Virus record (IMG/VR): IMGVR_UViG_3300036781_000312
Location: 1-53,988 of that record
DNA: 53,988 nucleotides
Source: a virus
Taxonomy: Duplodnaviria > Caudoviricetes
Strand: one strand, 5' to 3'
Under the pieces are notes generated by a model, which worked only from the letters and a program-made list of their open reading frames with translations, had not been told where the DNA came from and did not search any database. Positions 7,238 to 28,389 of the stretch are shown here, in pieces; within the stretch, counting starts at the first letter, position 1; every line of letters begins with the position of its first letter. Made by a program: the position numbers and the translations under genes.

Positions 7238-7385
7238 GAAGTCTCCTGTCTTTGCGAAGCCGTGTTCCAGCACGGCGGTTCAAACAACAGCGGCCTTTCA
7301 CCGCCTCGGCCGCAGGCTCCCTGCGGCTCGGCCCCGTCGCAGCGCGCTCTACGCGACTAGCGGCCTTTTCTGCAACGCGAAATTG

Positions 7386-8303
7386 TTAGAACGGTGCCGG
7401 TTCAGCGCTCTCCGGCACCGGGTCGTCATGCCCGCCCAGAACCTCGATCAGCCGGTAAATCACACGCAGCATTTCGGTGGTGGCGATCAGCGTGTCGCTG
7501 TCGAAGCGGTCAGCCTCTTCGATGTCCGCCGCCATCACGCCGTCCAGAAACCTGATTTTCTTGAGCTGCAGCGTGTCGGTGAGCGTGAAGGCGATGCGGC
7601 CCTCGAAGCCCATCGCCAGGCGGGTCGGCATCTTGCCGGCGGCGACGTGGGCGCGGACCTCGGCGACGTCCAGGTGGTGCTGCGTGTAGCGGACTGCCGC
7701 GCCGCTGTCATCCTTGGCCTTAAGCTCCAGGTCACGATCAACGTCGAGTTCCGAGGGAAGGCTGATGCCTGATAGCCAGGACGCCATGCCAGCCGCCGGC
7801 GACGACGCGGTGGCGATGGGCGCCGCGGTCAGGCCGGGGGCGGACTTGAATAGGCACGTCAGCACTTCCTCCGCCTTCGTGCGGCTGCCGGTGTCGATCG
7901 CCAGCAGGCGCGACGCCGGCGCCAGCCACACCAAGATGCTCTCCTGCCGGGTGAAAGCCTGCGGCAGCAACTGCATGTAGGTGTCCTCGCGGATTTCGCG
8001 CGCCTGCTTCTTTCCCGGCTTGCGGCCAGTGATCTGCTCGATGCTCGCCAGCCGCTCCTCGGCCTTGCGGCGCACCACCGCGCCCGGCAGCACGCGGACC
8101 TCGCTCTTAAAGCGCAGGATGACTTGGCCGGCGATGGCCTCCGCCAGTGCGCCGTGCTCCTCGCCGCGCGGGGGAATCCAGCCGCAGGACTTCTCCTGGG
8201 TGGGCAGGCATTCGGCGAACTGCGCGCCGGCGAGGCCCGCCACCAGGTCATCGAATTGCCATTGCGTGTCGCCCAAGCGGTACAGGATCAGGTTTTTGAA
8301 CAT
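7386..8303 (-). CDS. rdgC: Recombination-associated protein RdgC
   Basis: MFKNLILYRL start, GWIPPRG, LLPQAF, KIRFLD; 305 aa. Confidence 0.93.
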   Translation of the reverse strand: MFKNLILYRLGDTQWQFDDLVAGLAGAQFAECLPTQEKSCGWIPPRGEEHGALAEAIAGQVILRFKSEVRVLPGAVVRRKAEERLASIEQITGRKPGKKQAREIREDTYMQLLPQAFTRQESILVWLAPASRLLAIDTGSRTKAEEVLTCLFKSAPGLTAAPIATASSPAAGMASWLSGISLPSELDVDRDLELKAKDDSGAAVRYTQHHLDVAEVRAHVAAGKMPTRLAMGFEGRIAFTLTDTLQLKKIRFLDGVMAADIEEADRFDSDTLIATTEMLRVIYRLIEVLGGHDDPVPESAEPAPF

Positions 8304-8315
8304 GGCGTTTTCAGG

Positions 8316-8384
8316 AAAAAGGGTGGGACTCGGCGCTCCGGCACGCTAGATGACAGGAGGGTTTTGCCTCGGCGCTCCGTCCCA
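8316..8384 (-). ncRNA. Candidate antisense sRNA hairpin with loop CCCUCCUGUCAUCUAGCG
   Basis: UGGGAC/GUCCCA and GGCA/UGCC stems, a self-pairing direct repeat GGAGCGCCGA, trailing U5; loop complementary to five leaders. Confidence 0.55.
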
Positions 8385-8392
8385 TTGATCGG

Positions 8393-8941
8393 TCAGTGGT
8401 AGTCGGTGAACTTCAAAATCTTGTCTACGATTTCATCCAGCTCGGCGCGGCCCGCGTAGTTCGTCAGCACGCGATCGAGCAGCACCTGGGCCACGGCGTC
8501 GTAGAGGCGGTCGAACTCGTCGTCCTCCATGTTTGCGAAGGCGATGGATTTGGCGACAACCTGCATGCGCCCTTCCAGGTCCCAGTGCTGCTCGTAGTAA
8601 CCGGCCAGCTTGGTCACATCCTTGCGGAACGTGTCGAAATTCTTTTCCACCAGCATGCCCCGGTAGGTCTTGTGGACCCGCTTGGCACCCCAGTGCTCAA
8701 ACCCGAGATTGAGCAGCGCGAAAAACTTCCGATGTTTGATCGGGTCGCGCGGGAAAACGAGGGATAGGTTGAACATTTCCCCCTGTTCGGCTTTGAACAG
8801 GCGGGTGAGGAACTTGCGCCACTTCTTCGCATCGTCGTCGGTGAGCCCGCCGACGCAATCCAGCAAGGTGCGATGTAGCGCGGCGCGCTCGACCTCGGTG
8901 AGCGCGAAGGGCTCTTTGACGACAATGGAAAGATCGGCCAC
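8393..8941 (-). CDS. DUF1367-family protein
   Basis: HRKFFALL...FRKDVTKLAGYY...SIAFANMEDDEFDRLY. Confidence 0.8.
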   Translation of the reverse strand: MADLSIVVKEPFALTEVERAALHRTLLDCVGGLTDDDAKKWRKFLTRLFKAEQGEMFNLSLVFPRDPIKHRKFFALLNLGFEHWGAKRVHKTYRGMLVEKNFDTFRKDVTKLAGYYEQHWDLEGRMQVVAKSIAFANMEDDEFDRLYDAVAQVLLDRVLTNYAGRAELDEIVDKILKFTDYH

Positions 8942-8952
8942 GACGCGGGTTC

Positions 8953-9228
8953 CTAGTTGATGCGGAGATAGTCGAACTTGCCCTTGATGCGTTCCTTGAG
9001 AAACGCTCCCTTCGACTCGGCGGCCATGAACTCGGTGTGCACCTCCGGCGGCACGGCGCTGTAGTGGTAGAGGCTGGCGGGCGCATTGGGGCCGCGTTCA
9101 CCCTTGTAGCCGCCTTGATAGAACGCGACCGCGAGGGTGTTGGTGGGGGAGTCGTAGCCGATTTCCTTGATCTGGTGCGACTGGACCGCGACCATGGCGA
9201 TGTTGAGCCGGGCGATTTGGGTGTCCAT
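8953..9228 (-). CDS. KTSC-domain protein
   Basis: VQSHQIKEIGYD...YHYSAVP...AESKGAFL. Confidence 0.88.
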   Translation of the reverse strand: MDTQIARLNIAMVAVQSHQIKEIGYDSPTNTLAVAFYQGGYKGERGPNAPASLYHYSAVPPEVHTEFMAAESKGAFLKERIKGKFDYLRIN

Positions 9229-9256
9229 GCGGTTCTCCTGGGTGAACTGGTGGGGA

Positions 9257-10942
9257 TCAGGCGCTGGCGGACTGGAAGTGGCGGGAAACCGCCTCCAGAT
9301 CCATTTCCAGCAACCAGGTAATGACGCGGGCGTGGGGCACTTGGTAGGTGGTCGCCAGGGCGTGCACCATCGCCGCGTCGGTAGGCCGGGTGGCAGCGGA
9401 CGGCGCCGGGGTGGTGGCGCGCATCGGAATCACGTTGCGGGAGGCGTCGGAAGCCGCCGTGGTGGCGCTGGCGGCTGATGCCTGGGGTTCCGGGTTGGGC
9501 GCGACATGAGAGGCGGTGACGACAGCCTGCGGAGCAAGTTCGGCGCGCTGTTCGTTGGCGAGAGATGCCGCAGCCGCCGCTTGGCGCGCGCGCTCCTCTT
9601 CCTGGAGGCGCGCGGCTTCCTCGGCGCGAATGCGCTCCCGCTCCTCGTCCATGCGCTTTTGCTCCCCCGCCTCAAACTCGGAGACGCGCAGTTTGACCAG
9701 CGGCTGGAAATCATCGGCCGCTTTGAGGATGATCTGGCCGACGTCGTGGAACAGGTGGGTGTGGTGCCCGCCGTTGTCCGCCAGATAGCGGATGTTCGCC
9801 ATGATCCCGTCGCCGATGAGGGTGGCCGCTGCCTTGGCGCGCGCCAGTTCGGCGTCCGCGCCATCCTGCACGCCCTTGAGCGATTTTTTGCCCTTGATCG
9901 CCGCCTGAAAATCCGCCGCAACCGGGGGCATGTAATTGCGACCGATGCGCTGATTCAGCGCCGCGATGTGCGCCGCCAGCGCGTCCTTGCCCTTTTGTAC
10001 GGTGGCCGCGCGCAGGTTCTTTTTCTGCGCTTCGACCTGCGCATTGAGCGTAAGCCGCGTACTGCGCGCTACCTCAACAAGGTCCTCCACCGTGCGGCGC
10101 AGCGCTTCCACCGAGACGACCTGCGCCAGAGCGCGATCCAGCGCACCCTGCAGGGCTTCCTCGGAGGCTTCCATCACCTTGATGGCCTTCTCGGCGTCGG
10201 CGAAGGCCTGATCCGTGGCCGGCTTCATGTCGATGGTGGCGATGAAGGCGCGCATTTCGGTGCCGAACACGTCGATGTTCGAAACCACGGTGAGCATGCC
10301 GTTCACCTTCACATCGAGCACCGGCAGGGACTTCACCGGCGCCGCAACGGCGGGTGCCTTGGCTTCGACGTGCTGGTAATTTGCCAGGTCCCGGTCGAAC
10401 TGATCCCATGCGGCAACGAGCTGCGCGGCGCGGCCGGGGACGGCGCGGTATTCCATGTGCACGAAGCGTTCCGGCGTGCCGTTACTACAAACGAAAATCA
10501 CGCGCTCCAGCCCGCCGACCAGAATCTGGTGCTCAAGCTGCCAGTAATAGTGCGGCTCCAGTTCGCCGGCGCGCACCTGTTCGGCCAGGCGCTCGTTCCA
10601 GAGCTTGTGCTCGTAGCCGGTCCGATGCGTCATGGTCAGGCCGTCGTAGGACGCCAGCAGGCGCTCCGCATCATCGGTGGCCGTGATCGGATATAGCTCC
10701 TCCCCGATCAAGTCCTCCACCAGCGGGCGCGCGCTGGCCTCTGTGGCATGGCCGCGGTCGAACAGTGCCCGCTTGGCGGGATCGATTTCCTCGGTTTCGC
10801 CGGTGGCGCGTTCGCGCAGCAGATCGGAGCGCGATTTGTACTTACTCTCGCCCATCACCGCCGGCGCATCGGAGGCGCAGTGGTGCAGCGCACGCGCCGC
10901 CAGCCATTCAGGGGTGCCCTGGTCAACGGGTAGGATTTTCAC
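9257..10942 (-). CDS. YqaJ/lambda-exonuclease family protein
   Basis: QGTPEWLAAR, ASD, GHATE, ASYDG, EHK, YYWQ. Confidence 0.9.
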   Translation of the reverse strand: MKILPVDQGTPEWLAARALHHCASDAPAVMGESKYKSRSDLLRERATGETEEIDPAKRALFDRGHATEASARPLVEDLIGEELYPITATDDAERLLASYDGLTMTHRTGYEHKLWNERLAEQVRAGELEPHYYWQLEHQILVGGLERVIFVCSNGTPERFVHMEYRAVPGRAAQLVAAWDQFDRDLANYQHVEAKAPAVAAPVKSLPVLDVKVNGMLTVVSNIDVFGTEMRAFIATIDMKPATDQAFADAEKAIKVMEASEEALQGALDRALAQVVSVEALRRTVEDLVEVARSTRLTLNAQVEAQKKNLRAATVQKGKDALAAHIAALNQRIGRNYMPPVAADFQAAIKGKKSLKGVQDGADAELARAKAAATLIGDGIMANIRYLADNGGHHTHLFHDVGQIILKAADDFQPLVKLRVSEFEAGEQKRMDEERERIRAEEAARLQEEERARQAAAAASLANEQRAELAPQAVVTASHVAPNPEPQASAASATTAASDASRNVIPMRATTPAPSAATRPTDAAMVHALATTYQVPHARVITWLLEMDLEAVSRHFQSASA

Positions 10943-12135
10943 TTGCCACCTCCGACGGGATCATTGATAAAGGCGATCGCCTGCTCGACCTGCTCGGCAG
11001 TGATCGTGTCCAGGGACTTCACGCCCAGGTGCTTGCAGATTTCAGCCTCGGTGATCGCCGCGCGTTTGGCTTTCGCGCGCAGGCCTTCGAGAATGGAGGC
11101 GCCGACCTTGGTGCCGTCACCACCCTGCCCTTGCTGGTCGCCGCCAAGCGCCGGCGGCTCGGCGGGTGCGTTCAGCGCCGCCAGTTGCTCGGCAGAGAGC
11201 GTGCCTTTGCTGGCGACCATCGCGGCGATGTCGTCCGCCGTCTTCTGGCCGCTGTGGATCATGGCGCGCCAGTTTTCGACGTTCTTCTTGAACATCGCCT
11301 CCGGGTACGCGGGCTTTTCCTTCGCCGTCGGCGCGCCGCTGCCCTGCCCGCCGGTGTTGGTCGGCTCGAATTCGAACCACTCCGTCGGCGTGCTCATGTC
11401 ATCGCGGAGGCTGGCGTAAATCTTCCGCAGGTTGACGACCTGTGCCGGCTGGATCGCATCAATGCGACGTTGGATGCGCTTCTCGATCATTTCTTTCGTG
11501 ACCTCGAACTCCGCGAAGGCATCCACCAACTTTTTCATCGCCTCTGGCGAGGTGTCGGCCTTGGCGCGCAGTGTCAGTTCGCATTGCGCCCGCGCCGCCT
11601 CAACGACATCACCGGGCAGTACAGTCAGCAGCACGGCGCGTTTGCGGCGCTGCCCCATGTTGGCGGTGAGTTCGTAGATGTCGCGCTCGTCAGTGAGGGC
11701 GTAGCCGCCCTTCTTCGTGTCGCGCCAGTGCCGAATTTGGAATTGGCGTTCGTCATAAAAACCTGTCTCCAGGTCCCAGGCGTAAGCGACGCATTCGCTA
11801 TAGCCGTTGGCGCGGCTTACTTCCTTAATGCCGGAGGCGATGTTTCCCCAGTCGCGAGCGATGGACTCGGCCAATTTGATCGAGGGACCGGATACATCAC
11901 TGCCGCCGCGCGCATATTGGTAGATGGCGACCTCTGCCAGCGTCGGGCGCATGCAGGCCTGCATGATTTTGTCCATCGCACGCTTCTCGTCGCGGGGATT
12001 GGCACGCGCGATCATCATGCGAGCTTGAATCTCCGCGATGGCGCGCTGCTGCTCGATAGCGACCAGGGCGCCGACAGGCTGCAATACGCTGGCTTGCTGG
12101 CCCGCAAACGGCGATTCGATAACCTCGGTGGTCAT
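10939..12135 (-). CDS. Putative single-strand annealing/recombination protein
   Basis: Coupled to YqaJ in the usual annealase position; family not recognised. Confidence 0.55.
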   Translation of the reverse strand: MTTEVIESPFAGQQASVLQPVGALVAIEQQRAIAEIQARMMIARANPRDEKRAMDKIMQACMRPTLAEVAIYQYARGGSDVSGPSIKLAESIARDWGNIASGIKEVSRANGYSECVAYAWDLETGFYDERQFQIRHWRDTKKGGYALTDERDIYELTANMGQRRKRAVLLTVLPGDVVEAARAQCELTLRAKADTSPEAMKKLVDAFAEFEVTKEMIEKRIQRRIDAIQPAQVVNLRKIYASLRDDMSTPTEWFEFEPTNTGGQGSGAPTAKEKPAYPEAMFKKNVENWRAMIHSGQKTADDIAAMVASKGTLSAEQLAALNAPAEPPALGGDQQGQGGDGTKVGASILEGLRAKAKRAAITEAEICKHLGVKSLDTITAEQVEQAIAFINDPVGGGK

Positions 12136-12644
12136 GCTGCTTTCCTTCCAAGTTGGTGCATGGCGATCACCGCGTCGGTGTGCATGCTGATTTTTTCCGG
12201 CAGGCTCAAGTTGCCGGCCTGCAAATTGCAGGCGCTATGCGCCAGGGCCAGATTGGTAATATGTGAGGGGCCGCCGTGAGTGGCCGACAGCAAGTGCTCC
12301 ACGGTCATGTCGTCACCGAGCGGGAAGAGGCAGTAAAAACAGTCGCAGCCATCGCGCTCGAGAAGCGTGCGAACGGTCACGTCCTTGACATGCTTCCGCG
12401 TCGCTGCCTTCGTGACGCGATAGGGATTGCCCCGCGAGTAACAATTCCACGCTGGTGCGGCGTCGCCGGTGAAAGTCAGGTTTCCGCCCTTGTCGCGGTA
12501 GACAATGCTGGTGCCGCGGTCGCCGCGAAAACGGAGCATTTCCCATTCGTTCGTCGGCGCCAGCATTTCGCCGCCAGCTTCCGACAGCCATGCCGAAAAC
12601 TTCGGCAACTTCTTCTTGAAGGTTGCAAGGGTCGGCGTGCTCAT
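12132..12644 (-). CDS. HNH endonuclease
   Basis: RDGCDCFYC...TVEHL...HGG...NLALAHSACN. Confidence 0.88.
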   Translation of the reverse strand: MSTPTLATFKKKLPKFSAWLSEAGGEMLAPTNEWEMLRFRGDRGTSIVYRDKGGNLTFTGDAAPAWNCYSRGNPYRVTKAATRKHVKDVTVRTLLERDGCDCFYCLFPLGDDMTVEHLLSATHGGPSHITNLALAHSACNLQAGNLSLPEKISMHTDAVIAMHQLGRKAA

Positions 12645-12898
12645 CGCTTGCCCCCTTCGATCGCACGCAGCGCCGGCCGGGCGCGGCCGTAGTTGTGATA
12701 AATGACTTTCCCGGCAGCCTTACGCGCCAGCACCGGCTCACTCAGCAGCAGGCGAGCACGCTGCAAGTCCGCCGCCCGGCGGGTGGCGCGCACCAAGCGC
12801 TGCTCGCTCGTCTGGTGCACGGACATGAGGAACAGAACATCCTCGTCGGCGATGCAGCAGCGGGCGCGCAGGATCAGGTCTTTCAGGGCGCGGATCAT
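12641..12898 (-). CDS. Hypothetical protein
   Basis: Coupled ORF. Confidence 0.6.
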   Translation of the reverse strand: MIRALKDLILRARCCIADEDVLFLMSVHQTSEQRLVRATRRAADLQRARLLLSEPVLARKAAGKVIYHNYGRARPALRAIEGGKR

Positions 12899-13440: not shown

Positions 13441-13743
13441 TCAGTCCCCCGTCCAGTTGCGCCCGCTGCGCGCGCCGTCGATCGGCTTGGCGATCTGCGC
13501 CATGTCGATGCGGATTTCGGGGATACCGGCGTAGGCCAGCGCGCAGTGAGCGGCATTCGCGCGCATCAATTCGTCATAGCAACGGGTGATGGCTTCGCGC
13601 CAGGCTTGCAGGGAACCGAACGCAACCTCGCCCTGCTTCGGGGTGAGGCTGCGCATGGTGATGTAGGCGCTGCTGGCGTCGAGGGCCGCGATATGGGCCT
13701 CGTCGATCGCTTCCTGCCGGGTGTCGGTGGTGGCGGTGTTCAC
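13441..13743 (-). CDS. First gene of PL operon, hypothetical
   Basis: GTG with RBS GACAGGAGG. Confidence 0.7.
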   Translation of the reverse strand: MNTATTDTRQEAIDEAHIAALDASSAYITMRSLTPKQGEVAFGSLQAWREAITRCYDELMRANAAHCALAYAGIPEIRIDMAQIAKPIDGARSGRNWTGD

Positions 13744-13837
13744 GGTACTACCTCCTGTCTCTGCCTTTGGTGTTCCAGCACCGCAGGCTTCGGTTTGGTT
13801 TTCATCTATCGGCGGCTAGCGACCACCGATGAATTGA

Positions 13838-13878
13838 ATTATACGCTTTCGTATTTTTGTGTCAATACGTTTTCGCAT
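13838..13878 (-). promoter_or_regulatory. PL promoter (TTGACA-16-TATAAT) with operators at 13841..13854 and 13865..13878
   Basis: Consensus hexamers overlapped by ATACG-N4-CG(T/C)AT palindromes. Confidence 0.88.
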
Positions 13879-13920
13879 TTATTTTTGCCAAATGGAGTTC
13901 CATACAGTAAATTCCACTGT

Positions 13921-14603: not shown

Positions 14604-15317
14604 TTAGAAGAAGCGCATCACCATTTCGCGCACCACGCCGCAGATCACCGCGTCGTCGCGCAGCTCCATCGTCGGGAAGGCTGGGTTTAGCGGCTGGAGG
14701 AACTGCCGGCCACCGTCGCGCACCAGGCGCTTGAACGTGACTTCCTCGTCAAACCCCTGCCGCGCCACTACAAAGTGGTTCGGCAGCGCCTCGATGTCGG
14801 GCTCCACGATGATGATGCAGCCGTGCGGGAAGCTGGGCGAACCGTTCGGGTTTTCCATGCTCGGCCCGTTCACGCGCAGCGCGAAGGTGTGCTTGCGGAT
14901 CGGCACTGTGGTATCGACCCACTCCTCCGCATCACCAGGTGAAAAGTTGTCGACTACGTTGGCCCAGTCGCCGGCCTGTACCCAGGAGATCAAGGGAACG
15001 CTTCCCTGTTTATTCGGGCCGACGGACAGGTTGCTCTTGCCTTCCGCGTCGGCCACGTTTGTTAGTTTCGCCTCGATCATCGACACGGTGTTGGAGTCGT
15101 TCTTCACCAGGATGTCGGGCGCGCCGTAACGCAGCTCCTTTACCGAAATCCGGAAATAGGCGGCCAGCGGTTCGATGGTTTTGTCCCGCGGGCTTTCGTG
15201 CTCGCCGGACAGGATGCGATGGATGGTTGGCTGAGGAACCTTCGTCACGAGGGCGAGCTGAGTGGCGTTCATGCGCCTGTTGTCGAGCAGCTTCTGGAGG
15301 TTTTCAGCAATCGGCAT
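14604..15317 (-). CDS. cI: CI-like repressor (HTH + S24 peptidase)
   Basis: N-terminal HTH, VQAG cleavage site, VNGPSM serine, TFKRL lysine; start 15317 or 15320. Confidence 0.95.
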   Translation of the reverse strand: MPIAENLQKLLDNRRMNATQLALVTKVPQPTIHRILSGEHESPRDKTIEPLAAYFRISVKELRYGAPDILVKNDSNTVSMIEAKLTNVADAEGKSNLSVGPNKQGSVPLISWVQAGDWANVVDNFSPGDAEEWVDTTVPIRKHTFALRVNGPSMENPNGSPSFPHGCIIIVEPDIEALPNHFVVARQGFDEEVTFKRLVRDGGRQFLQPLNPAFPTMELRDDAVICGVVREMVMRFF

Positions 15318-15323
15318 CATCGA

Positions 15324-15399
15324 AAAATACGCCAGCGTATAGCCGCGAGCAAGAAATAATCCGTTTTCGTATTGACATAGCAATACGCTTTCGTATAAT
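15324..15399. promoter_or_regulatory. PR (TTGACA-16-TATAAT), putative PRM (TTGCTC-17-TATTTT, minus) and three operators (15327..15340, 15359..15372, 15383..15396)
   Basis: Same ATACG-N4-CGTAT palindrome as at PL; divergent cI/cro layout. Confidence 0.88.
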
Positions 15400-15406
15400 C
15401 GGCCTG

Positions 15407-16461: not shown

Positions 16462-16718
16462 GCCAGCGCGCCCGCTCCACGCTCGCCGCGCATCTTCCGC
16501 GCCAGAACTGGGCGCTGATCCTGCACGACCTCAAACACAAGGATGTGAGCCAGGCCGAACTGGCGCAGCGCACCGGCATCAGCAGGGCGACCATCTGCCG
16601 CATGGGCCAGGGCACGGAGCCGGCGCACGCAGTGGGCTTGGCGATCCTTGCCATCCATCAGGCCGAGGGTTGCGATCATCGCCCGCTGATTTATCCGGCG
16701 AAGAAATGGAATCCATGA
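16458..16718 (+). CDS. HTH protein
   Basis: SQAELAQRTGISRATICRM. Confidence 0.75.
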   Translation: MSQRARSTLAAHLPRQNWALILHDLKHKDVSQAELAQRTGISRATICRMGQGTEPAHAVGLAILAIHQAEGCDHRPLIYPAKKWNP

Positions 16719-17467
16719 AGCCCGCCGCCGCGCCGAAACAGGCGCTCATCAAGATGATCCAGGGGCTGGCGCGCCGCGTCGACACCTGGACGGTATTCAG
16801 TGATTTCGTCGAGCTGGCCGCGCTGGCCATCAGCAATGCCGTGGACCCGCGCCAGTTCGATGCGCGCGAGGCGCGCTATTTCGAGGTGATCAAGGGCTAC
16901 GAAAAGGACGAGCTCGCCCAATTCCAGCAGATGCTGGGCGAGTTGACGCTGGCGCTGGAAAACGAGCGCACCGACGTGCTGGGCCAGGTTTTCATGCAAC
17001 TCGAGCTGGGCAACAAGTGGGCGGGCCAGTTTTTCACGCCGCAATGCGTGTGCGACCTGATGGCAGGCATAACGCTGCACGACGTCGAGGAGACGCTGGC
17101 GCGCCAGGAGTTCATCACCATCAGCGAGCCCGCTTGCGGAGGCGGCGCGATGCTCATTGGGATTGCCAATCACCTTCATGGCCTGGGCATCAACTACCAG
17201 CGGCGCATGCACATCACCGCCGTGGACGTCGATATCAAGGCGGTGCACATGACCTATGTGCAGTTGTCGCTCCTGGGCGTGCCGGCGGTGGTGGTGCACG
17301 GCAATACGCTGATGCTGGAGGAGCGCAGCCACTGGTTTACGCCCATGCACATGCTCGGGCTTTGGGGTGCGAAGTTGCGCCGGCGTGCGCCGGCGGAAGC
17401 GCCGCCGGCCGTGCGCGCGCCAACCATGCCTCTCGGCGAGCAGCTCGACCTAGGCCTAGCCGCATGA
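16706..17467 (+). CDS. N6-DNA-methylase-like protein lacking an NPPY/F motif
   Basis: GQFFTP and EPACGGG present; protein ends shortly after HGNTL. Confidence 0.8.
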   Translation: MESMKPAAAPKQALIKMIQGLARRVDTWTVFSDFVELAALAISNAVDPRQFDAREARYFEVIKGYEKDELAQFQQMLGELTLALENERTDVLGQVFMQLELGNKWAGQFFTPQCVCDLMAGITLHDVEETLARQEFITISEPACGGGAMLIGIANHLHGLGINYQRRMHITAVDVDIKAVHMTYVQLSLLGVPAVVVHGNTLMLEERSHWFTPMHMLGLWGAKLRRRAPAEAPPAVRAPTMPLGEQLDLGLAA

Positions 17468-18328
17468 CCGTGACCCGTCCTGCACTTCGATACCACGGCG
17501 GCAAGTGGAAGCTTGCGCCCTGGATTCACCTATTTTTCCCTGATCATCGGATCTATGTCGAACCGTTCGGGGGGGGGGGCTTCCGTGCTCCTGCGTAAGC
17601 CCCGCGCCTACGGCGAAATCTACAACGACCTGGACGGCGAGGTGGTCAACGTCTTCCGCATGTTGCGGGACCGCGGCGCCGAACTGCAGCGCGCACTTGA
17701 GCTGACGCCGTTCTCTCGCGAGGAATTCGAGCTTTCGTACACGTTGGCCAGCGATCCGCTGGAAGCAGCCAGGCGCACGGTTGCGCGGTCGTTCATGGGG
17801 TTCGGCTCGGCCGCAGCCACCGGCGAGCGCAGCGGGTTCCGCGCCAATTCCAACCGCTCCGGCACCACGCCGGCGCACGACTGGGCGAACTTCGCGCCGG
17901 CGGTGGAGGCGCTTACCGACCGCATGCGTGGGGTGGTGATCGAAAACCGTGATGCCCTGGCGGTGATGGTGCACCACGACAGTCCGCAAACCTTGCACTA
18001 CTGCGATCCGCCCTATGTGCATAGCACTCGCAGCGGTAAGGTCCGCGGCATCGTGTCGCAGGGCCGCGCCAGCGGCAAGGCCTATCGCCACGAAATGGAC
18101 GATGAGCACCACCGGCAGTTCTCGCTGGTGGCGCGCAGCCTAGAGGGCATGGTGGTCGTGTCCGGCTACCCCTGCCCGCTTTACAACGAGCTTTTCGAAG
18201 GCTGGGAGCGTTTCGAGCGTCCCGCCTATGCAGATGGTGCCCGCGAGCGCACCGAAGTCGTGTGGCTCAACGCTGCCTGCTCGATCGCCCTGAAGCGCTC
18301 GCGCGCGCAGATGGAGTTGGTGGCGTGA
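17464..18328 (+). pseudogene. Dam/D12-class DNA adenine methyltransferase, frameshifted at a G11 tract
   Basis: LRYHGGKW...YVEPFGGG in one frame; ASVLL...YNDLD...DPPY in another; G11 at 17569..17579, and G10 restores the frame. Confidence 0.9.
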
Positions 18329-19059
18329 AGTTCTTCACCGGCCTGCACCAGCCTAGCGATGCGAAACACTTTGGCGCGGCTTTCGTGAGCGTCAACCGCC
18401 TGCGCGGGCGAAAGGGCCCGTTCGCTGTAGGCGACTGGATCATGGATTCGGGCGCCTTCACCGAAATTAGCACGCATGGCCGATATCGGCATGACGTCTC
18501 CGAATACGCTGCCGAGATTCGGCGCTGGGCGAACAACGGCAACCTGCTGGCGGCCGTGGCGCAGGATTGGATGTGCGAGCCCTTCATCGTCGCCAAGACC
18601 GGCTTGAGCGTGTGGGAACACCAGGTGCTGACTGTATTGCGCTACGACGAACTGCTGAAGGAGAACACCGGCGTCTACATCATGCCGGTCTTGCAAGGCT
18701 ACGCGCCGGCGGAATACGTTGAGCACTTGACCGTGTATGGCGACCGCCTGGCGCACGGCCAATGGGTTGGCGTCGGCAGCGTGTGCAAGCGCAACAGCGA
18801 TCCGCGTGCCGTCGCTGCGGTGTTGCACGCCATCAAGACCGCGCGCTCGGACCTACGCTTGCACGGCTTCGGGCTGAAAACCACGGCCCTCGCTGATCCG
18901 CTGGTGAGCGGGCTGCTGGAAACCGCCGACAGCATGGCTTGGTCGTTTGCAGCTCGCCGCCAGGGTCGCAATGCCAACGACTGGCGCGAGGCGGTGACGT
19001 GGGCGGAAAACATCACGAATCGGCCGGTTCAGCACTTACTCGAGCTTGGGGCTGCGTGA
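18325..19059 (+). CDS. TGT/DpdA-like base-exchange (transglycosylase) family protein
   Basis: MDSGAF, PVLQG, VGVGS, LHGFG, ADSMAW motifs in TGT-barrel order. Confidence 0.75.
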   Translation: MKFFTGLHQPSDAKHFGAAFVSVNRLRGRKGPFAVGDWIMDSGAFTEISTHGRYRHDVSEYAAEIRRWANNGNLLAAVAQDWMCEPFIVAKTGLSVWEHQVLTVLRYDELLKENTGVYIMPVLQGYAPAEYVEHLTVYGDRLAHGQWVGVGSVCKRNSDPRAVAAVLHAIKTARSDLRLHGFGLKTTALADPLVSGLLETADSMAWSFAARRQGRNANDWREAVTWAENITNRPVQHLLELGAA

Positions 19060-22824: not shown

Positions 22825-23022
22825 ATGGCCGACGAAATAGACCTGGCCAACGAGCGCGCCGAGATCGCGCTGGCCGACGCGCTGCGCATGCGCAAGCCAG
22901 TACTGCCGCGCATCGGACATTGCTACAACTGTGGCGAGCGCGCCGACGCGCTGTATTGCGACGTGGCGTGCCGAGATGATCACCAGCGCCGGCAGTTCAT
23001 GCAGTCGATGGCGCCGCGATGA
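22825..23022 (+). CDS. TraR/DksA-like C4 zinc-finger protein
   Basis: MADEIDLANE...CYNC...YCDVACRDD. Confidence 0.75.
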   Translation: MADEIDLANERAEIALADALRMRKPVLPRIGHCYNCGERADALYCDVACRDDHQRRQFMQSMAPR

Positions 23023-23225
23023 TCGTCGACTTAAATGGTCGCCCGCTGTACGTTGAAATAGCTGTTGGGTCCATTGTCAGGCTGCGCTCAGGTGGCCCCG
23101 AGATGTGGGTCACGGATCGAGACTTCCATGCATGTGTCCTTTGCTCATGGGATGAATGCCAAAACGAAGACGGGGAGGAATGGTTCCCGACAGGTGATCT
23201 TGAAGTCATCAGGAGAGCCCCGTAG
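23019..23225 (+). CDS. YodC/DUF2158-like protein
   Basis: GSIVRLRSGGPEMWV. Confidence 0.75.
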   Translation: MIVDLNGRPLYVEIAVGSIVRLRSGGPEMWVTDRDFHACVLCSWDECQNEDGEEWFPTGDLEVIRRAP

Positions 23226-23287
23226 GCGCCCTGGCGCGCGCCGCTTCGATGGTGAGGGTGGACCGGCCCGCCGGCGGCGTGTAGCGG

Positions 23288-23485
23288 CTATTTGGCAGCC
23301 AGCCTGTCCAGCGCCGCGCGGATGCCGGCCGACAGGTTGCCCTTGCCCAGCCGCTCCGCGGTCGCATATTGCGTGTCGTTCAGGCGCAGCGCAACCAGGT
23401 TGGAGCGCTTGCCGGCGGGATCAGGCTTCGGGCCAGCGCCCTTTCGAGCGCCGCCGCGCTTGGCCGGAGGTGCAGCTTTCGGCAT
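23288..23485 (-). CDS. Small basic putative DNA-binding protein
   Basis: RGGARKGAGPKP followed by an RHH-like segment. Confidence 0.65.
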   Translation of the reverse strand: MPKAAPPAKRGGARKGAGPKPDPAGKRSNLVALRLNDTQYATAERLGKGNLSAGIRAALDRLAAK

Positions 23486-23486
23486 T

Positions 23487-23798
23487 TCAGTTTCCGTGCG
23501 GTGTGGCGATCAGGATGTATTCCCGGCCGTCAATGATCGTGGTTTGAAACGCGGTGTCTTGCAGGTTTTGGTAGGCCTCGACCTCGCGGGCGAAGTCGGC
23601 ATTGTCCGCGATTTGCCCCTCGTCGTCGTGGTTGCGCACCGCGATCGCCTCCAGGTGCATGGGCAGGCCGTTGATCGTGATTTCAGTCAGCAAACGCGCG
23701 CGCGGATCGTATCCATCCTCATCGTCCGGCCCGTCGGGGCCAGTCTCCTGCCATGCGTAGGGGTTGATGGTGATCGCGGTAAAATTCGTTTCAGCCAT
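23487..23798 (-). CDS. Acidic hypothetical protein
   Basis: RBS GACAGGAG; D/E-rich. Confidence 0.7.
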   Translation of the reverse strand: MAETNFTAITINPYAWQETGPDGPDDEDGYDPRARLLTEITINGLPMHLEAIAVRNHDDEGQIADNADFAREVEAYQNLQDTAFQTTIIDGREYILIATPHGN

Positions 23799-23871
23799 AG
23801 CTGGGATACTCCTGTCTCTCGGTTCGGTTAGGGGGGAGCAACGTGGTTCCAGCCGCGCCCCCCGTTCAGGA

Positions 23872-24111
23872 TTATTTGATTTCGTCGATGGGCAAGCTTT
23901 CGATCAGCGATTCGCCGGTCTCCTCGCTCACCAGGTCGGCGATGCGCAGATCGTCGCAGAGGTCGTGATGAGGCGCGAATACTAGATAGCCAACCTCCCA
24001 ATTTTTCGCTATGGCCTTCGCTTTGGCTTCCGCCTCCGCGTCGCTTTCGGCTTCAATTTCTACTTCGGCGTAGCACGGAGCGTTATAGGCCAGCACCAGG
24101 TTGTATTTCAT
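23872..24111 (-). CDS. Acidic hypothetical protein
   Basis: VEIEAESDAEAEAKA motif; RBS GGAG. Confidence 0.7.
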   Translation of the reverse strand: MKYNLVLAYNAPCYAEVEIEAESDAEAEAKAKAIAKNWEVGYLVFAPHHDLCDDLRIADLVSEETGESLIESLPIDEIK

Positions 24112-24159
24112 GATCGGCTCCGGTGAGGGAGCGCGCCCCTTTCGAGGCGCGCCCGCTGG

Positions 24160-25143
24160 TTAGGCTGCGGTGACGAGCTGACCGGCCAGCGCGAAGGCTT
24201 CATCTTTCAGCTTCGCGCCCTCGCCGAACCATGCCGCGTCAAGCCCGGTGCTGCGCGACAGGCCGCGCTCATGGTCCACGTACTCGGTCACGGCGTTGAC
24301 CAAGCCCCACATCGTGCCCTTGACCATGTCGGCGCCGATTGCCTCGCCGTTGAACAGCGCGCTGATGCGCTTGTAGCCCTTGCTGGCGCGCACCTTGTCT
24401 TGCGCCTCCTGGCCTTGCGCGGCCTTGAACAAGTGGAGCAGGAAGGCGTCGGACAGCTTCTCGTCGACCTTCGCCGCCGCCATCTTGCGGGTGCGCATCA
24501 GGAATTCATCCCAACCGCTGATGGCAATGCCGAGCTGCTCGCGCACCGCCGCCGCGTTGAAATGGGCGAAATGCGGGATCTTCACTTTTGGCTCAGCGGC
24601 GCCAGCGCGCGCACCATCACCGGCCGCAGCGCTCAGCGTGTTGTTGCACACCACGCGGATGCTGGTGAACTGCGCGGTGGTCGCCATGCTGGCATCGTAG
24701 GACGTGGCGAACAGAAGATAGGGGCGAATGTTGTCGCCGTCGATGATGCGCGCTTCTTCGCCGACGCGGGCCAGGGCCCAGATGCGATTGCCGCCGCGCA
24801 GGCAGCCGGCGGTTTCGAGCTCGAAGCCCGCGCCCTTCACCAGCTCGTCGAAGAAGCCCAGCACCTGGGACGGTTGCACGGTCTTGTAAAGGTCGCTCAC
24901 GGTCGAGAGCGCAGCGCCGGTGTCGTCACGCACCAGCACGCGGCGGCCGTCGAACACCCTGCGCTCGCCCTTGTATTCGAATTCAACCGGCACTTCGGCC
25001 ACGTTCCAATTCAGGCCGGCGGCGGTGCGCCAGGTTTCCAGATCGGCGCCGGCGGGAAGCTTGGAGCCGAGGCCATGCCAGGGGGTTTTGCCAATAAAGG
25101 CGACGTTTGCGCGGTTGTTCGAGAAGTCGATTTCGTGAGCCAT
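24160..25143 (-). CDS. DUF932/DUF945-family protein
   Basis: MAHEI...PWHGLG...AGLNW...ETAGCLRGG...TSIRVVCNNTL...NAVTEYVDH. Confidence 0.9.
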   Translation of the reverse strand: MAHEIDFSNNRANVAFIGKTPWHGLGSKLPAGADLETWRTAAGLNWNVAEVPVEFEYKGERRVFDGRRVLVRDDTGAALSTVSDLYKTVQPSQVLGFFDELVKGAGFELETAGCLRGGNRIWALARVGEEARIIDGDNIRPYLLFATSYDASMATTAQFTSIRVVCNNTLSAAAGDGARAGAAEPKVKIPHFAHFNAAAVREQLGIAISGWDEFLMRTRKMAAAKVDEKLSDAFLLHLFKAAQGQEAQDKVRASKGYKRISALFNGEAIGADMVKGTMWGLVNAVTEYVDHERGLSRSTGLDAAWFGEGAKLKDEAFALAGQLVTAA

Positions 25144-25198
25144 GTGATTCTCCTGTCAGTTTGTGGGGTGATCCGGTGTTCCAGCACCGTTATTGATA

Positions 25199-25227
25199 AT
25201 GTTATACACAATCAAATGGGAACGCAA
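25199..25227 (-). promoter_or_regulatory. Putative promoter of DUF932 cassette (TTGCGT-17-TAACAT)
   Basis: Sigma70-like hexamers just upstream of the leader hairpin. Confidence 0.55.
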
Positions 25228-25295
25228 GGCTTTTATCTTGTGCGGTGCAACCCAGAGGGAGAAATCCTCGTTTTGGCAACGGGCGCGGCCATTGC

Positions 25296-25323
25296 TTGAC
25301 ACGCGAAAAATCCGTGGTATCTT
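25296..25323 (+). promoter_or_regulatory. Putative late promoter PR' (TTGACA-16-TATCTT, TG-extended)
   Basis: Near-consensus hexamers upstream of late genes, followed by a terminator. Confidence 0.7.
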
Positions 25324-25334
25324 CCCCACTTACA

Positions 25335-25445
25335 ACTCGTTGGGTGCATAGGCCTTCGGCTTAGGAGCATCCCCACAGCGCCTAAATGCCTGTGTGACGC
25401 CTGCCGGAATGGCAGGCACCCGCGCCAGCAAAAGGCGCCACGAGT
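25335..25445 (+). ncRNA. Candidate multibranch structured RNA
   Basis: Five to six mutually compatible stems between the promoter and terminator. Confidence 0.5.
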
Positions 25446-25460
25446 GAGCCCCGACCGATG

Positions 25461-25485
25461 AAGCCCGCCGATGCGCGGGCTTTTT
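25461..25485 (+). terminator. Intrinsic terminator (tR'-like)
   Basis: AAGCCCGC-loop-GCGGGCTT followed by T run. Confidence 0.8.
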
Positions 25486-25538
25486 GCTTTTCCAGCGTCC
25501 ACCCCGTTGCGTTTACCCGTCAACTACCTGGAGCTGAA

Positions 25539-25862
25539 ATGTCACTCACCTTGAAACGATCCCTCTGCACCGCCCTCGTCGCCATGGCCGTCACCGTCGT
25601 CGCCTACGTCTTGTTGTCGGACCACGGTACCGTCTCGGCGCTGGTCAACATCGGCGCGTCGATCGCTATCGGCGCCAGCTTCGGTTACGGGCTCAGCCTC
25701 CTCGACCTGCGACCGGCTGCCGGCGACAAGCCGGCCTTCCAGGGCTACTGCGTCGACCACACCCGCGCCAGCCTCGCGCGCGCCGCCGGCCGCACCAGCA
25801 CCGGCTCGTTCCTGCGCGGCAAGGGCATCGCCTGCGGCTTCTGGTCCCTGGCGCACGCCTAA
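25539..25862 (+). CDS. Membrane protein
   Basis: RBS GGAG, two hydrophobic helices. Confidence 0.65.
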   Translation: MSLTLKRSLCTALVAMAVTVVAYVLLSDHGTVSALVNIGASIAIGASFGYGLSLLDLRPAAGDKPAFQGYCVDHTRASLARAAGRTSTGSFLRGKGIACGFWSLAHA

Positions 25863-25866
25863 AGCG

Positions 25867-26040
25867 GTGAAGTACCTCCCCATCGCCACTGCGGTCGCCT
25901 GGCTGCTCACGTACTGGGCGTTCGCGGCGGCGAGCAAGGGCGGTGACGACTTCGGCGCCGGCCTGCTGTATTGGCTGGTGCTGGTGGTCGCCGCCCTCCT
26001 CTCGCTCATTACGTTCGTCAGGGCGTTTTTTCTGCACTGA
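25867..26040 (+). CDS. Small membrane protein
   Basis: GTG start, two hydrophobic helices; read by hand. Confidence 0.45.
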   Translation: MKYLPIATAVAWLLTYWAFAAASKGGDDFGAGLLYWLVLVVAALLSLITFVRAFFLH

Positions 26041-26194
26041 CGCAACCATCAATGGTCGACGGCGCACGCGCGAGCGACCCGCCCTTGCCGTGTGTTCCCG
26101 GCCGGCCGTCCTGTGTTTCATTGCTGTACTCCTCGGTGATTCATCCCACCACCTGGTGCGCCGGTTCCCCTGCTGGCGCACCCATTTATTCCTT

Positions 26195-26797
26195 ATGACT
26201 CGCGCAAAGCTCAACACCGTCCCGATCGACAGCGTCCGCCTCGACCCGGAGAACGTGCGCGAGCACAACGAGCGCAACCTGGTTGCGATCACAAAGAGCC
26301 TGGAGAAGTTCGGCCAGCAAAAGCCCATCGTCATCGACAACGATGGCGTCATCGTCGCCGGCAACGGCACATGGATGGGCGCGAAGCGCCTGCACTGGAC
26401 GGAAATCTGGGTCACGGTCACGGAGCTGGAGGGCGAAGCCAAAACCGCCTTCGCCCTGGCCGACAACCACATCAACGAGCTGTCCTACTTCAATGAGGAC
26501 GCGCTGGCGGCCACGATAGGCGCGATCAGCGACACCGATTTGCTGGAGGCTGCCGGCTTCGACACCGGCGAGCTGAACGATATTTTTCGCGGATCTTCCG
26601 AGCCCATCGAACTCGAGGCCGCGGGCGAAAGCGCCGGCGCGGGTGGCGGCAACAAGAAGCCAGTCACCGTGCGCGTGGCCATCGCCGTGCGCAGCGTTGA
26701 GGCCTTCGAGCAGGCGCTGAGCGCGACCGGCCTCATGAACCGCGAAGAGGCGCTGCTGGAAGTGTGCCGCACCTATGTCGAAGCAAAAGGACAATAG
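26195..26797 (+). CDS. ParB N-terminal (ParB/Srx) domain protein
   Basis: NVREHN...SLEKFGQQKPIVID...IVAGNG...ALADN. Confidence 0.88.
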   Translation: MTRAKLNTVPIDSVRLDPENVREHNERNLVAITKSLEKFGQQKPIVIDNDGVIVAGNGTWMGAKRLHWTEIWVTVTELEGEAKTAFALADNHINELSYFNEDALAATIGAISDTDLLEAAGFDTGELNDIFRGSSEPIELEAAGESAGAGGGNKKPVTVRVAIAVRSVEAFEQALSATGLMNREEALLEVCRTYVEAKGQ

Positions 26798-27449
26798 CAC
26801 CCTCGACGCCAAGCTACGGCTGCGGCGCGCAGTGCTGAAAAATGCGCCGCCGGCGCCGATGGTGCTCGAAACGCATGGCGGCAATGGCCGCGTCTACGAA
26901 CGCGCGTGGTACACCGCGAGCGGCGGCTGCGTCATCGAAAAGGACAGCGGGAAAATCGAGCAGCTAGCGCAGCAGCGCCCGCATTGGTCGGTCTTCGAGG
27001 GCGATTGCATCGCCGCGCTGGGAGCCGGGCTGATGAGCAGCACGGCCTTTGACGTTGTGGACGTTGATCCCTACGGCTCGCCACTACCGATCTTCGATGC
27101 GTTGTTCCATGTGGAACGCACCTTCCCCGAGCGCTGGCACCTGGTGGTGAACGATGGCATGCGGCAGAAGCTGCAACGCGGCGGCGCTTGGCATGTGGCC
27201 GAGTTGGCGCGCATCGTGGCGCGCCGGGGCAACAATCTTGCCCCGGTGTACCTGGAAGTGGCGCGCGAGCTGGTAGAAGCCTTCGCGCTGCGGATCGGCT
27301 ACCAAGTCGCCGGCTGGCACGGCTACTACACCGGCGACAAAGGCCTGATGACCCATTATTGGGCCGTGCTGGAGCGGATCAGTGGTGCTGCTGCACCCGC
27401 ATCGGGTTGTGATAACCCTCCGGCAGATACGGCTGCAGGTCCTTCTTGA
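26775..27449 (+). CDS. SAM-dependent methyltransferase-like protein (Trm1/TcmP-like DPYG motif)
   Basis: VLETHGGNG (motif I), IEKD, GDC, FDVVDVDPYGSP. Confidence 0.7.
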   Translation: MSKQKDNSTLDAKLRLRRAVLKNAPPAPMVLETHGGNGRVYERAWYTASGGCVIEKDSGKIEQLAQQRPHWSVFEGDCIAALGAGLMSSTAFDVVDVDPYGSPLPIFDALFHVERTFPERWHLVVNDGMRQKLQRGGAWHVAELARIVARRGNNLAPVYLEVARELVEAFALRIGYQVAGWHGYYTGDKGLMTHYWAVLERISGAAAPASGCDNPPADTAAGPS

Positions 27450-28221
27450 TGTAGTGGGCGGCGCCGAGCTGCTTGCACAGCTCGATCATGCGCAGCGTGT
27501 AGTCGCGCCAGTCGGTGGTCTTGGTGATGTCCACGTAGTTCACGCGGCCGATCTTGTAGAGGTCGACAAAGCCGTGCGTCTCGCGCACGATTTCCAGGCT
27601 GGCCTCGACGTCCAGGGTGGGCTCCAGGCTCACCCAGGTGTAGATGCCGCGCTCGTGGAAGGCTTTCAGCGCTGCAAGGCGATCGGCCGGCAGCGCCGCC
27701 CCGCTCTCCCATTTGCGCGAGAACGCATCATCCAGGCTGGTGATGGTCGAGGCGAACGAATCGCGGTCAGCGCGGAAAATGCTGATGTCGCGCAGGCTGC
27801 GCGTGCCTCCCTTAGTCAGCGTGCAGATGGCCAGGCCGTGCTCCTGCAGCACATCGAGCGTTTGGCGCGTCAGCGTGTTGTCGCCTGGGTGGTAGGGGTC
27901 GCTGGTGAAGCTGAGCATGACCTGCTCGCCGATGCCGGCAGCCTGATATTTCTTGGCGTCGCGCTTGAGGTTGTCGAGATAGCCGGCGCGCCACACCGCG
28001 CCTTCATTGAATTCGACGCGCGGCTGCTTGGTGATCAGCGGCACGTAGCAGTAGGCGCACTTGTGCCCGCAGCCGCGGTACGGATTCGCTGCCAGCGGCG
28101 CGTATTCCCCGGCCTGGCCGGCGGGCGCGTAGATGAACGAACAGCCTTTGATCGACACGCCATCGGGCTTAAGCGTGGAAACGGGAATGCGGGTCTCTTT
28201 CGAGACGGCGAGGCTCGTCAT
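27379..28221 (-). CDS. Radical SAM protein (SPL/Rv2578c-like)
   Basis: NPYRGCGHKCAYCY (CX3CX2C), SDPY, TLTK, SLEP. Confidence 0.88.
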   Translation of the reverse strand: MTSLAVSKETRIPVSTLKPDGVSIKGCSFIYAPAGQAGEYAPLAANPYRGCGHKCAYCYVPLITKQPRVEFNEGAVWRAGYLDNLKRDAKKYQAAGIGEQVMLSFTSDPYHPGDNTLTRQTLDVLQEHGLAICTLTKGGTRSLRDISIFRADRDSFASTITSLDDAFSRKWESGAALPADRLAALKAFHERGIYTWVSLEPTLDVEASLEIVRETHGFVDLYKIGRVNYVDITKTTDWRDYTLRMIELCKQLGAAHYIKKDLQPYLPEGYHNPMRVQQHH

Positions 28222-28389
28222 TGTGAATCTCCTGTCAAGTTAGAACCGTGTTCCAGCACGGTAGGAGTATTAGAGCAAAAAATACCATTTTTGTCTACTA
28301 AATCAATAACTTACGTATTTTCCTTTTAGAACGAAAGGGTTACGGGAGTTTTGTTCGTCGCGGCGGCGCCGTGGCGGGAAGGTGGGAAT

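Follow-up and report, generated by a model that had tools for sequence, protein, structure and literature searches.

Repeats that stand just ahead of translation starts are known from phages, and the nearest described system is that of the Cluster K mycobacteriophages. In the account of these start-associated sequences (SAS) in PMC3203893, the repeat contains AGGAG, lies 3–7 bp before the starts of non-structural genes in one orientation and is absent from the host. The SAS consensus is given there as 5'-GGGATAGGAGCCC, in 11–19 copies, of which about half carry an inverted repeat just upstream; the arms of the extended form (ESAS) are 17 bp long and conserved in sequence without compensatory changes, and its authors favoured DNA binding (PMC3203893). 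The function was not known when the repeats were described in 2011, and a role in translation initiation was proposed (PMC3203893). Here we analyzed a two-part leader element in IMG/VR virus record IMGVR_UViG_3300036781_000312 (the window), the complete 53,988-bp record of a lambdoid temperate phage, in which a small hairpin with the hexaloop CUGGAA and an extended Shine–Dalgarno (SD) block, GACAGGAG, stand together before five genes. Like the SAS as described, the window block contains AGGAG, is found 5–10 nt before starts and on one strand, and occurs in host genomes at control level. Unlike the published consensus GGGATAGGAGCCC, the block reads GACAGGAG and has five copies, and the host phylum differs. 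Unlike the conserved 17-bp ESAS arms, those in the window are short and covary around an invariant loop.

The 8-mer CTCCTGTC was found on the plus strand at 7243, 13752, 23809, 25150 and 28229, and once on the minus strand, at 8352. This total of six compares with a shuffle mean of 1.18, and none of 100 shuffles reached it. When the loop was included, the pattern CTCCTGTC-N5-30-TTCCAG gave five matches against 0.02 expected, and 0/100 shuffles reached five, so that the five-copy bipartite element of the original prediction was confirmed together with its hairpin coordinates. In the sense of the genes (minus strand), each site showed the same order: a hairpin with hexaloop CUGGAA, a spacer, GACAGGAG, a second spacer and a start codon. 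For sites 7243, 13752, 23809, 25150 and 28229, the spacers between hairpin and GACAGGAG were 8, 9, 25, 16 and 8 nt, and those between GACAGGAG and the start codon 5, 8, 10, 6 and 7 nt; the start codon is ATG in four cases and GTG in one, always on the minus strand. Every one of the five minus-strand GACAGGAG blocks has both the hairpin and a start codon at SD distance. A scan of both window strands for hairpins with CTGGAA-like hexaloops revealed no further leader-type copy.

The exact 12-mer GTGCTGGAACAC is present in four of the five copies, all on the minus strand. The 23809 copy keeps the loop and the closing G-C pair and has a different stem (CGCGG/CCACG), in which a C.A mismatch of the minus-strand RNA corresponds to a G.U pair on the plus strand. 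In the alignment of the five stems, 26 of 30 cells hold standard pairs and three of the six pairs are changed on both sides; the observed pairing was reached by 3 of 500 shuffles, and slid controls gave 17–48%. The stems thus covary while the loop is invariant, as had been claimed, and the covariation is clear in the five-copy alignment. The spacers between hairpin and GACAGGAG are unrelated in sequence across the copies, which argues that the two parts have been conserved separately and do not reflect a recent duplication or one copied block. The CUGG of the hexaloop fits the YUNR pattern of a U-turn, and the hexaloop CUGGAA and the CAGGAG of the SD block are alike, both reading C-W-G-G-A-R. 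The whole leaders fold with z-scores of −1.9 to +0.7, none of them significant, and at sites 23809 and 25150 a different pairing is favoured by RNAfold.

The likely host order is Burkholderiales, judged from the relatives of the RdgC protein of the phage, whose best matches are 64% identical and come from betaproteobacterial metagenome-assembled genomes. The original prediction had named an equal frequency of the motif in host intergenic DNA as the observation that would speak against it. In 401 Burkholderiales genomes, GCTGGAAC-N10-40-GACAGGAG gave 18 matches, at most one per genome, and the reversed control also gave 18, by our own tally of the result table; the motif therefore stood up to this comparison. 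GAC preceded none of the 173 AGGAG sites before open reading frames (ORFs) in 1.2 Mb of host-like DNA. The bipartite motif is not a host feature, and host genomes carry it at control level. The oriented coupling of an invariant loop with an invariant SD extension before five unrelated genes points to shared control at translation initiation. Of the shared post-transcriptional regulon proposed at the outset, the cis element in five leaders is well supported; a role at the RNA level is the best fit, with the mechanism still conjectural. The sites, the genes that they serve and the main landmarks of the phage are collected below.

Table. Leader elements, genes served and landmarks in the window (+, plus strand; −, minus strand; aa, amino acids; pI, isoelectric point; HTH, helix-turn-helix)
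Feature	Position	Strand	Remarks
Hairpin GCCGUG-CUGGAA-CACGGC	7259–7276	−	RdgC–MazG intercistronic region
Extended SD block GACAGGAG	7243–7250	−	5 nt before ATG of MazG-like gene
MazG-like NTP pyrophosphohydrolase gene	6578–7237	−	PHROG 4856 only, 2.1e-09
Hairpin GGUG-CUGGAA-CACC	13769–13782	−	within outer GCCU/AGGC helix; ~45 nt into PL leader
SD block GACAGGAG	13752–13759	−	8 nt before GTG of first PL gene
First PL gene	13441–13743	−	100 aa, pI 5.3; no family, no Arg-rich motif
Variant hairpin CGCGG-CUGGAA-CCACG	23842–23857	−	at tip of long G6/C6 stem (~23833–23864)
SD block GACAGGAG	23809–23816	−	10 nt before ATG of acidic ORF
Acidic ORF	23487–23798	−	103 aa, pI 4.1; no family
TAAAAT	23780–23785	+	candidate −10 box for a putative plus-strand antisense RNA; ends 56 nt before apex
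Hairpin CGGUG-CUGGAA-CACCG	25174–25189	−	equals 16-mer family consensus; just downstream of AT-rich promoter-like region
SD block GACAGGAG	25150–25157	−	6 nt before ATG of DUF932 gene
DUF932 gene	24160–25143	−	Pfam 3.7e-57
Hairpin ACCGUG-CUGGAA-CACGGU	28245–28262	−	5' flank CUCCU able to pair with SD
SD block GACAGGAG	28229–28236	−	7 nt before ATG of radical SAM gene
Radical SAM gene	27379–28221	−	Pfam Radical_SAM 1.3e-10
Integrase	73–1095		
S24/HTH repressor	14604–15383		
PL promoter TTGACA-16-TATAAT	13838–13865	−	12/12 consensus
PR promoter	15372–15399	+	12/12 consensus; divergent from PL

The surroundings of the five copies differ. The 7243 copy is intercistronic between rdgC and the MazG-like gene, 12 nt past a terminator-like site (7289–7305); the 13752 copy follows a different hairpin (13808–13830), which occupies the 5' end of the PL transcript; the 23809 copy comes after the stop of a 79-amino-acid ORF; and the 25150 and 28229 copies stand directly after AT-rich promoter-like stretches in divergent intergenic regions. 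The gene labels given earlier held for DUF932 and Radical_SAM, both recognised by Pfam; the MazG-like label comes from PHROG 4856 alone, and the first PL gene and the acidic ORF belong to no family. The MazG-like protein and the first PL gene product both start with M-N-T-A (7226–7237 and 13732–13743), and the first 12 coding bases of the two genes are near-identical, possibly by coincidence.

The arrangement was then compared with related loci and other carriers. The motif was present in 0/15 loci of DUF932 relatives, and no bipartite motif was found at 80 loci of radical SAM relatives or 80 loci of RdgC relatives; the MazG-like protein has no relatives in the viral contig collection. In the related loci scanned together (L121–L297, 1.78 Mb), the motif occurred only in L136 and L137, which had themselves been found by pattern. 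Within the data reached, the five-copy arrangement is peculiar to this phage. Among 30 other carrier records, nine had a second match to the 10-mer, none of them in a long hairpin before an SD; none of the nine is a real second copy, which makes the five-copy phage unusual. The loose pattern CTGGAAC-N10-40-GACAGGAG gave chance-level matches in viral contigs, and only 6 of the 133 loose-pattern matches scored, 18 host-genome matches included, had a stem of at least 4 bp. The strict pattern gave 95 matches in metagenome contigs, most of them from one conserved coding region on the opposite strand with a 31-nt gap; real-looking leaders among them are L314/L391, L348 (=L389) and L353. By rough arithmetic, the number of double matches is near chance given the frequency of this hairpin, and it was not counted as support. 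A tblastn search (E≤1e-3) of all window ORFs against the six carriers of both parts (L136, L137, L314, L391, L348 and L353) gave nothing credible, with two marginal matches only. In L376, a tRNA-like gene on the minus strand (~5633; anticodon loop CUCAUAA, D-arm AGUG-CUGGAA-CACU) matched the strict pattern by chance. Six loci with distant DUF932 homologues (L130–L135) carry a different conserved leader (GCGGCCCGGCCACGTTGGCCGTACCGCTGGACTGATTGTTTAGG and variants) ~60–110 nt upstream of the gene, and the closer DUF932 relatives L121–L123 have another covarying hairpin before the SD.

The apex of the hairpin has a wider distribution than the bipartite motif. Without the GAC requirement, GTGCTGGAACACS-N5-35-AGGAG matched at least 112 loci in viral contigs, many of them in unrelated phages where the 12-mer caps a long hairpin, against 67 loci for the backwards 12-mer in a complete scan. 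At least eight nested pairs were counted in 55 of 90 real-pattern sequences, taken among the matches listed, and in 16 of 53 control sequences. The scan for the 16-mer consensus CGGTGCTGGAACACCG gave at least 112 loci, reduced to 107 by a flank-length filter, to 91 unique 64-mers and to 55 clusters (family loci L643–L739 and L413–L523, viral contigs); about 30 chance matches would be expected for the 16-mer by our own arithmetic on an assumed collection size, and the reversed 12-mer is the sole collection-wide control. Among the matches listed, nearly all of the 55 clusters form hairpins of ~12 bp with lower stems that vary in sequence and covary; in 42 of the 55, the better fold is that of the strand bearing the UUCCAG loop (42:13); mismatches next to the apex number 53 C.A and 4 A.C, against 9 T.G and 0 G.T; and an A-run, at −14 to −8 in the CUGGAA sense, reads on the opposite strand as a U-run behind the hairpin. 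The hairpin apex CGGTGCTGGAACACCG is common to at least 55 unrelated phage lineages, across phyla and the GC range. The earlier claim that G-U pairs favour the plus-strand fold is accordingly strongly borne out in the wider family, and in the window it applies to one copy only (23809).

On the CUGGAA strand, 28 of 43 lineages have an SD and gene start 26–123 nt downstream of the hairpin; on the opposite strand, 9 of 43 do. In 18 of 51 lineages, the UUCCAG strand carries promoter-like sites directed towards the hairpin, compared with 9, 10 and 9 in three control regions. In 14 of these 18 lineages the −10 box ends 43–58 nt from the apex, and two match TTGACA/TATAAT in 12 of 12 positions; because some of the promoter-bearing lineages are related, fewer than 18 are independent. 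From these features, the family members are predicted to be small transcription units of ~70–95 nt on the strand opposite to the flanking genes, and they look like small RNA genes. Their Pfam-named neighbours are lysogeny control or mobility genes: serine or tyrosine integrases, a P22-type antirepressor after a small HTH gene, a MuB-like ATPase behind a Mu transposase, and a GIY-YIG endonuclease; in enterobacterial lambdoids, the hairpin occupies the interval from cII to a DUF2740 ORF located before the replication gene. Relatives in the family include enterobacterial phages and relatives of Faecalibacterium phages. Rfam 15 gave no window match at gathering scores and, at relaxed E-values, nothing relevant at site 23809, in L468 or in seven family loci; a search of papers by sequence strings returned only unrelated eukaryotic primers and small interfering RNAs. 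We therefore regard the apex family as a candidate conserved RNA class, possibly new, that has no Rfam family.

Several single loci of the family deserve mention. L650 (~10002) and L645 (~6442–6457, reverse) share the same integrase N-terminus and matching flanks, and the loop is flipped between them, CTGGAA in one and TTCCAG in the other. A reading of the hairpin as an attP core was rejected: L650 has a tRNA, but the integrase separates it from the hairpin. In the cII–DUF2740 gap, L468 (2628–2675) and L524 (Enterobacter phage CobraSix, ~1555–1600) are homologous and keep the outer arms GAAAGCC/GGCTTTC while the inner ~19 nt of the hairpin differ, as if the apex had been swapped as a cassette. 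An extended −10 (TGC-CATTAT), read by eye on the opposite strand there, suggests an oop-like RNA. Of the annotated phages with homologous antirepressor loci, Anatole carries a hairpin whose apex differs, and a Pasteurella phage and Maddy2 carry none. The gut phage contig L502 contains a RAGATH-31 RNA (7562–7614; 75 bits, above the gathering score) as well as a family hairpin between its repressor and serine integrase genes.

The window copies share some of the family features. The 12-mer occurs in four of the five and the full 16-mer in one (25174–25189); all five are followed, on the CUGGAA strand, by an SD and gene start. By eye, three have A-rich 5' flanks; the long stem with a plus-strand G.U pair is found at 23809 only, and a family-type promoter on the UUCCAG strand (at least 8/12) at none of the five.

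Tentatively, we favour a shared RNA-level module of translational control whose partner is an antisense RNA; we hold this as a possibility, well short of a probable one. The five sites would act in cis as a single RNA module, repeated in the 5' leaders of accessory or early genes that are each translated independently. The mini-hairpin would display CUGGAA and, together with the extended SD block GACAGGAG, provide a bipartite docking site; a single trans-acting partner covering or freeing the ribosome-binding site could then control the five genes together at translation initiation. Opposite each site, the plus strand has the sequence CUCCUGUC ... hairpin(UUCCAG), complementary to both parts. 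Of the five copies, that at 23809 most resembles a small-RNA gene of the wider family, being the only one with a long stem, a G.U pair on the plus strand and a U-rich tail together with the TAAAAT 56 nt upstream; no other window site has a TANNNT box, and its distance of 56 nt lies within the family range. If the 23809 copy is a small-RNA gene, its RNA would be antisense in cis to the acidic ORF and could act in trans on the other four leaders, by a kissing contact with the loop and by pairing with the SD block. An RNA partner is favoured because the plus strand complements both patches, because the family apex normally belongs to a small RNA on that strand and because of the features at 23809; the support from the wider family holds by analogy. 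The motif with its structure and placement, its origin outside the host and the lack of CsrA are shown; we infer that the element acts at the RNA level, which partner it has and whether the effect is positive or negative.

A broader version of the antisense reading is more doubtful. In this version, CGGUG-UUCCAG-CACCG and its complement would be the business end of a hitherto undescribed class of small antisense RNA units found in temperate phages across phyla, and in the present phage one RNA (plus strand, ~23790–23885) would control five leaders. If so, such units would guard integrase, antirepressor and post-cII genes, and this phage would have made the system into a regulon: a phage-encoded kissing regulon with two patches, a U-turn loop and an extended SD, for accessory or anti-defence genes.

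A number of results weigh against an antisense partner. No sigma-70-like plus-strand promoter (at least 8/12) was found within ~200 nt of any of the five sites. At 23809, the −35 matches in two of six positions and the U-rich tail is not adjacent to the stem. The other four copies, with stems of only 4–6 bp, would be poor terminators, and a terminator scan flagged only 25174–25189 on the plus strand and none of the five on the minus strand. The family-consensus apex is found in the four short copies and not at 23809, which is awkward for 23809 as a family-type RNA gene. Predicted accessibility of the SD shows no common switch, being 0.01 at 28229 and 0.2–0.6 at the others. Across 11 lineages of the wider family, significant complementarity between the predicted RNA and the start region of the neighbouring gene was seen in only two.

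A phage or host RNA-binding protein, perhaps a dimer, could instead bind the CUGGAA loop and CAGGAG and block or promote ribosome binding, a possibility that we think somewhat unlikely. Such a translational operator would work on the principle of CsrA, T4 RegA and gp43, the MS2 coat protein or Mu Com, with a protein distinct from all of these. An invariant apex on a variable stem beside the SD is what this explanation requires, and the two parts resemble each other; the short hairpins of four copies, which keep the apex only, suggest that the tip itself is recognised. However, a Pfam or PHROGs scan of ~40 window ORFs matched no family that we recognise as RNA-binding, the nearest being a KTSC domain (8953–9228). 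The phage has no CsrA, and the window shares no credible protein with the six other carriers of both parts in the tblastn search above. Moreover, the family loop occurs in both orientations and it is the other strand that is structured.

The element may also be an expression cassette that needs no factor, although we consider this rather unlikely. The hairpin would insulate or stabilise the 5' end and keep a strong SD unpaired, as the phage's preferred leader for high expression; 5' stem-loops are known to stabilise bacterial mRNAs, as in ompA. In agreement with this, the SDs of the five genes are the strongest in the early region, where most other genes, as in the rest of the phage, have weak SDs or coupled or overlapping starts, and at 25150 and 28229 the hairpin would stand at or near the transcript 5' end, judged by eye from the AT-rich DNA upstream. 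However, an insulator requires neither an invariant 6-nt loop with its closing pairs nor an invariant GAC before AGGAG, an extension seen at 0/173 host-like sites, and at PL the 5' end is held by the other hairpin (13808–13830).

Less likely again, each hairpin could be an element of the plus strand: the terminator or 3' stem-loop of an antisense transcript, arising by read-through or as five cis-antisense RNAs, that shields or silences the gene start, with the SD block secondary. The strand asymmetry, U-runs and positioned promoters of the family agree with this explanation, as do the U-rich plus-strand tails at 13752 and 25150, the terminator-like 25174–25189 on the plus strand and the plus-strand G.U pair at 23809. 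Against it, four stems have only 4–6 bp, the hairpins at 7243 and 28229 lack a U-run behind them, a search for plus-strand promoters found none, and the identity of GACAGGAG in 5/5 copies is left unexplained.

A stoperator-like operator at the DNA level is improbable. In this case, a protein would bind the 12–16 bp of GTG-CTGGAA-CAC downstream of promoters and between genes. The geometry GGTG-N6-CACC resembles that of HTH operators, for example 434 ACAA-N6-TTGT; promoter-like regions stand just upstream of three copies; and the family duplex occurs in both orientations (42:13), including the loop flip between L650 and L645. However, positions outside the core change and yet keep complementarity, which a duplex binder does not require; the wobble asymmetry of the family is of the RNA type; and the probable cI operators, read by eye at PL and PR, have a different sequence (ATACG-N4-CGTAT).

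The original prediction offered a CsrA/RsmA-like double-GGA site as an alternative, which we now regard as very improbable. All five sites do have a GGA in the hairpin loop (positions 3–5 of CUGGAA) and a second in the SD block GACAGGAG, with offsets of 21–38 nt, inside the range known for a CsrA dimer. However, the CsrA profile PF02599 had no match in the phage at E≤1, none in five genomes whose RdgC resembles that of the phage, and a match in one of the 41 genomes sampled from the order to which the host probably belongs; the controls E. coli, B. subtilis and T. maritima were detected. By inspection, the GGA contexts GCUGGAAC and GACAGGAG also miss the A(N)GGA/CANGGANG consensus, their register being one base off.

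A boxB-like nut site for an N-type antiterminator is just as improbable. A hairpin lies between PL and the first gene, with a stem and loop of boxB size, and its U-turn hexaloop would resemble the boxB of phage 21. However, the first PL product is acidic (pI 5.3) and has no Arg-rich motif, and no plus-strand copy exists downstream of PR, where a lambda-type nut is expected as well as in the PL operon; together these make the N/boxB reading weak. In addition, a tight link to an SD block is not a nut feature, and the 7243 copy comes after, not before, the terminator-like site at 7289–7305. Two further candidates were rejected: a sigma-54 or extracytoplasmic-function sigma promoter, which on inspection lacks a conserved −12 element and would place the transcription start on the SD, and tRNA or T-arm mimicry, where the loop by eye is one base short.

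Other observations concern the phage itself. Palindromes of the form ATACG-N4-CGTAT, read by eye, overlap PL and PR (13838–13880 and 15368–15400) and are probably the repressor (cI) operators. The sole inverse copy of the 8-mer, CUCCUGUC, lies in the PL-operon RNA upstream of rdgC (8320–8385, minus strand), flanked by two direct repeats GGAGCGCCGAG and with a U-run after it; it could act as an anti-SD, and one such 8-mer is about what chance would give. Besides RdgC, the phage encodes a YqaJ-type recombinase domain, DpdA, several DNA methyltransferases and a late structural arm. DNA-modification genes are dense at 16670–19059, 4324–6333, 25943–27449 and 27379–28221. The set comprises DpdA (7-deazapurine in DNA), two N6 methyltransferases, a 669-amino-acid C5 methyltransferase, a ParB-N-like protein, a weak TRM-like match and the radical SAM enzyme, and it suggests a heavily modified genome or an anti-restriction arsenal. 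By analogy, the MazG-like, DUF932 and radical SAM genes and the two small acidic proteins look like an anti-defence or early accessory set, and the five-copy motif may mark a co-regulated counter-defence programme.

Compared with known systems, the reading with an antisense RNA partner has its closest functional analogues in P22 sar, which acts on ant, and lambda oop, which acts on cII; both are short cis-antisense RNAs that end in a hairpin beside a tightly controlled lysogeny gene. Like sar and oop, the wider family stands before antirepressor, integrase and post-cII genes, with a promoter on the opposite strand at a fixed distance; the likeness is one of function by analogy. Unlike them, only one of the five window sites has even a weak antisense promoter signal. 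To our knowledge, no conservation of an apex between phyla has been described for sar or oop. As in the kissing complex of OxyS and fhlA, two short separate patches are complementary, one of them over the SD, and the loop contains YUNR (CUGG); unlike there, five targets would share both patches, and the partner RNA is here only a candidate. CsrA/RsmA sites likewise have a GGA in a hexaloop and a GGA in the SD, whereas here the regulator is lacking from the phage and from nearly all genomes sampled in the likely host order, and the flanks deviate from the consensus.

Stoperators are asymmetric 13-bp duplex sites without hairpin or covariation, present as many oriented copies in short intergenic spaces near gene starts. 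The window copies are also oriented and near gene starts, and unlike stoperators they have a hairpin with covariation. Those of the Cluster A mycobacteriophages (L5 gp71 sites) are named in PMC3203893, alongside the SAS and ESAS. As far as the description in that paper goes, the SAS and ESAS are the nearest described system, alike in logic and position; the sequences differ, and the structural evidence at the present locus points the opposite way. The window motif is a new instance of phage start-associated leader repeats, and the apex family is separate from it. With five copies, a short covarying hairpin, an SD extension absent from host-like genes and a concrete candidate partner, this phage offers a cleaner test system than the SAS and ESAS.

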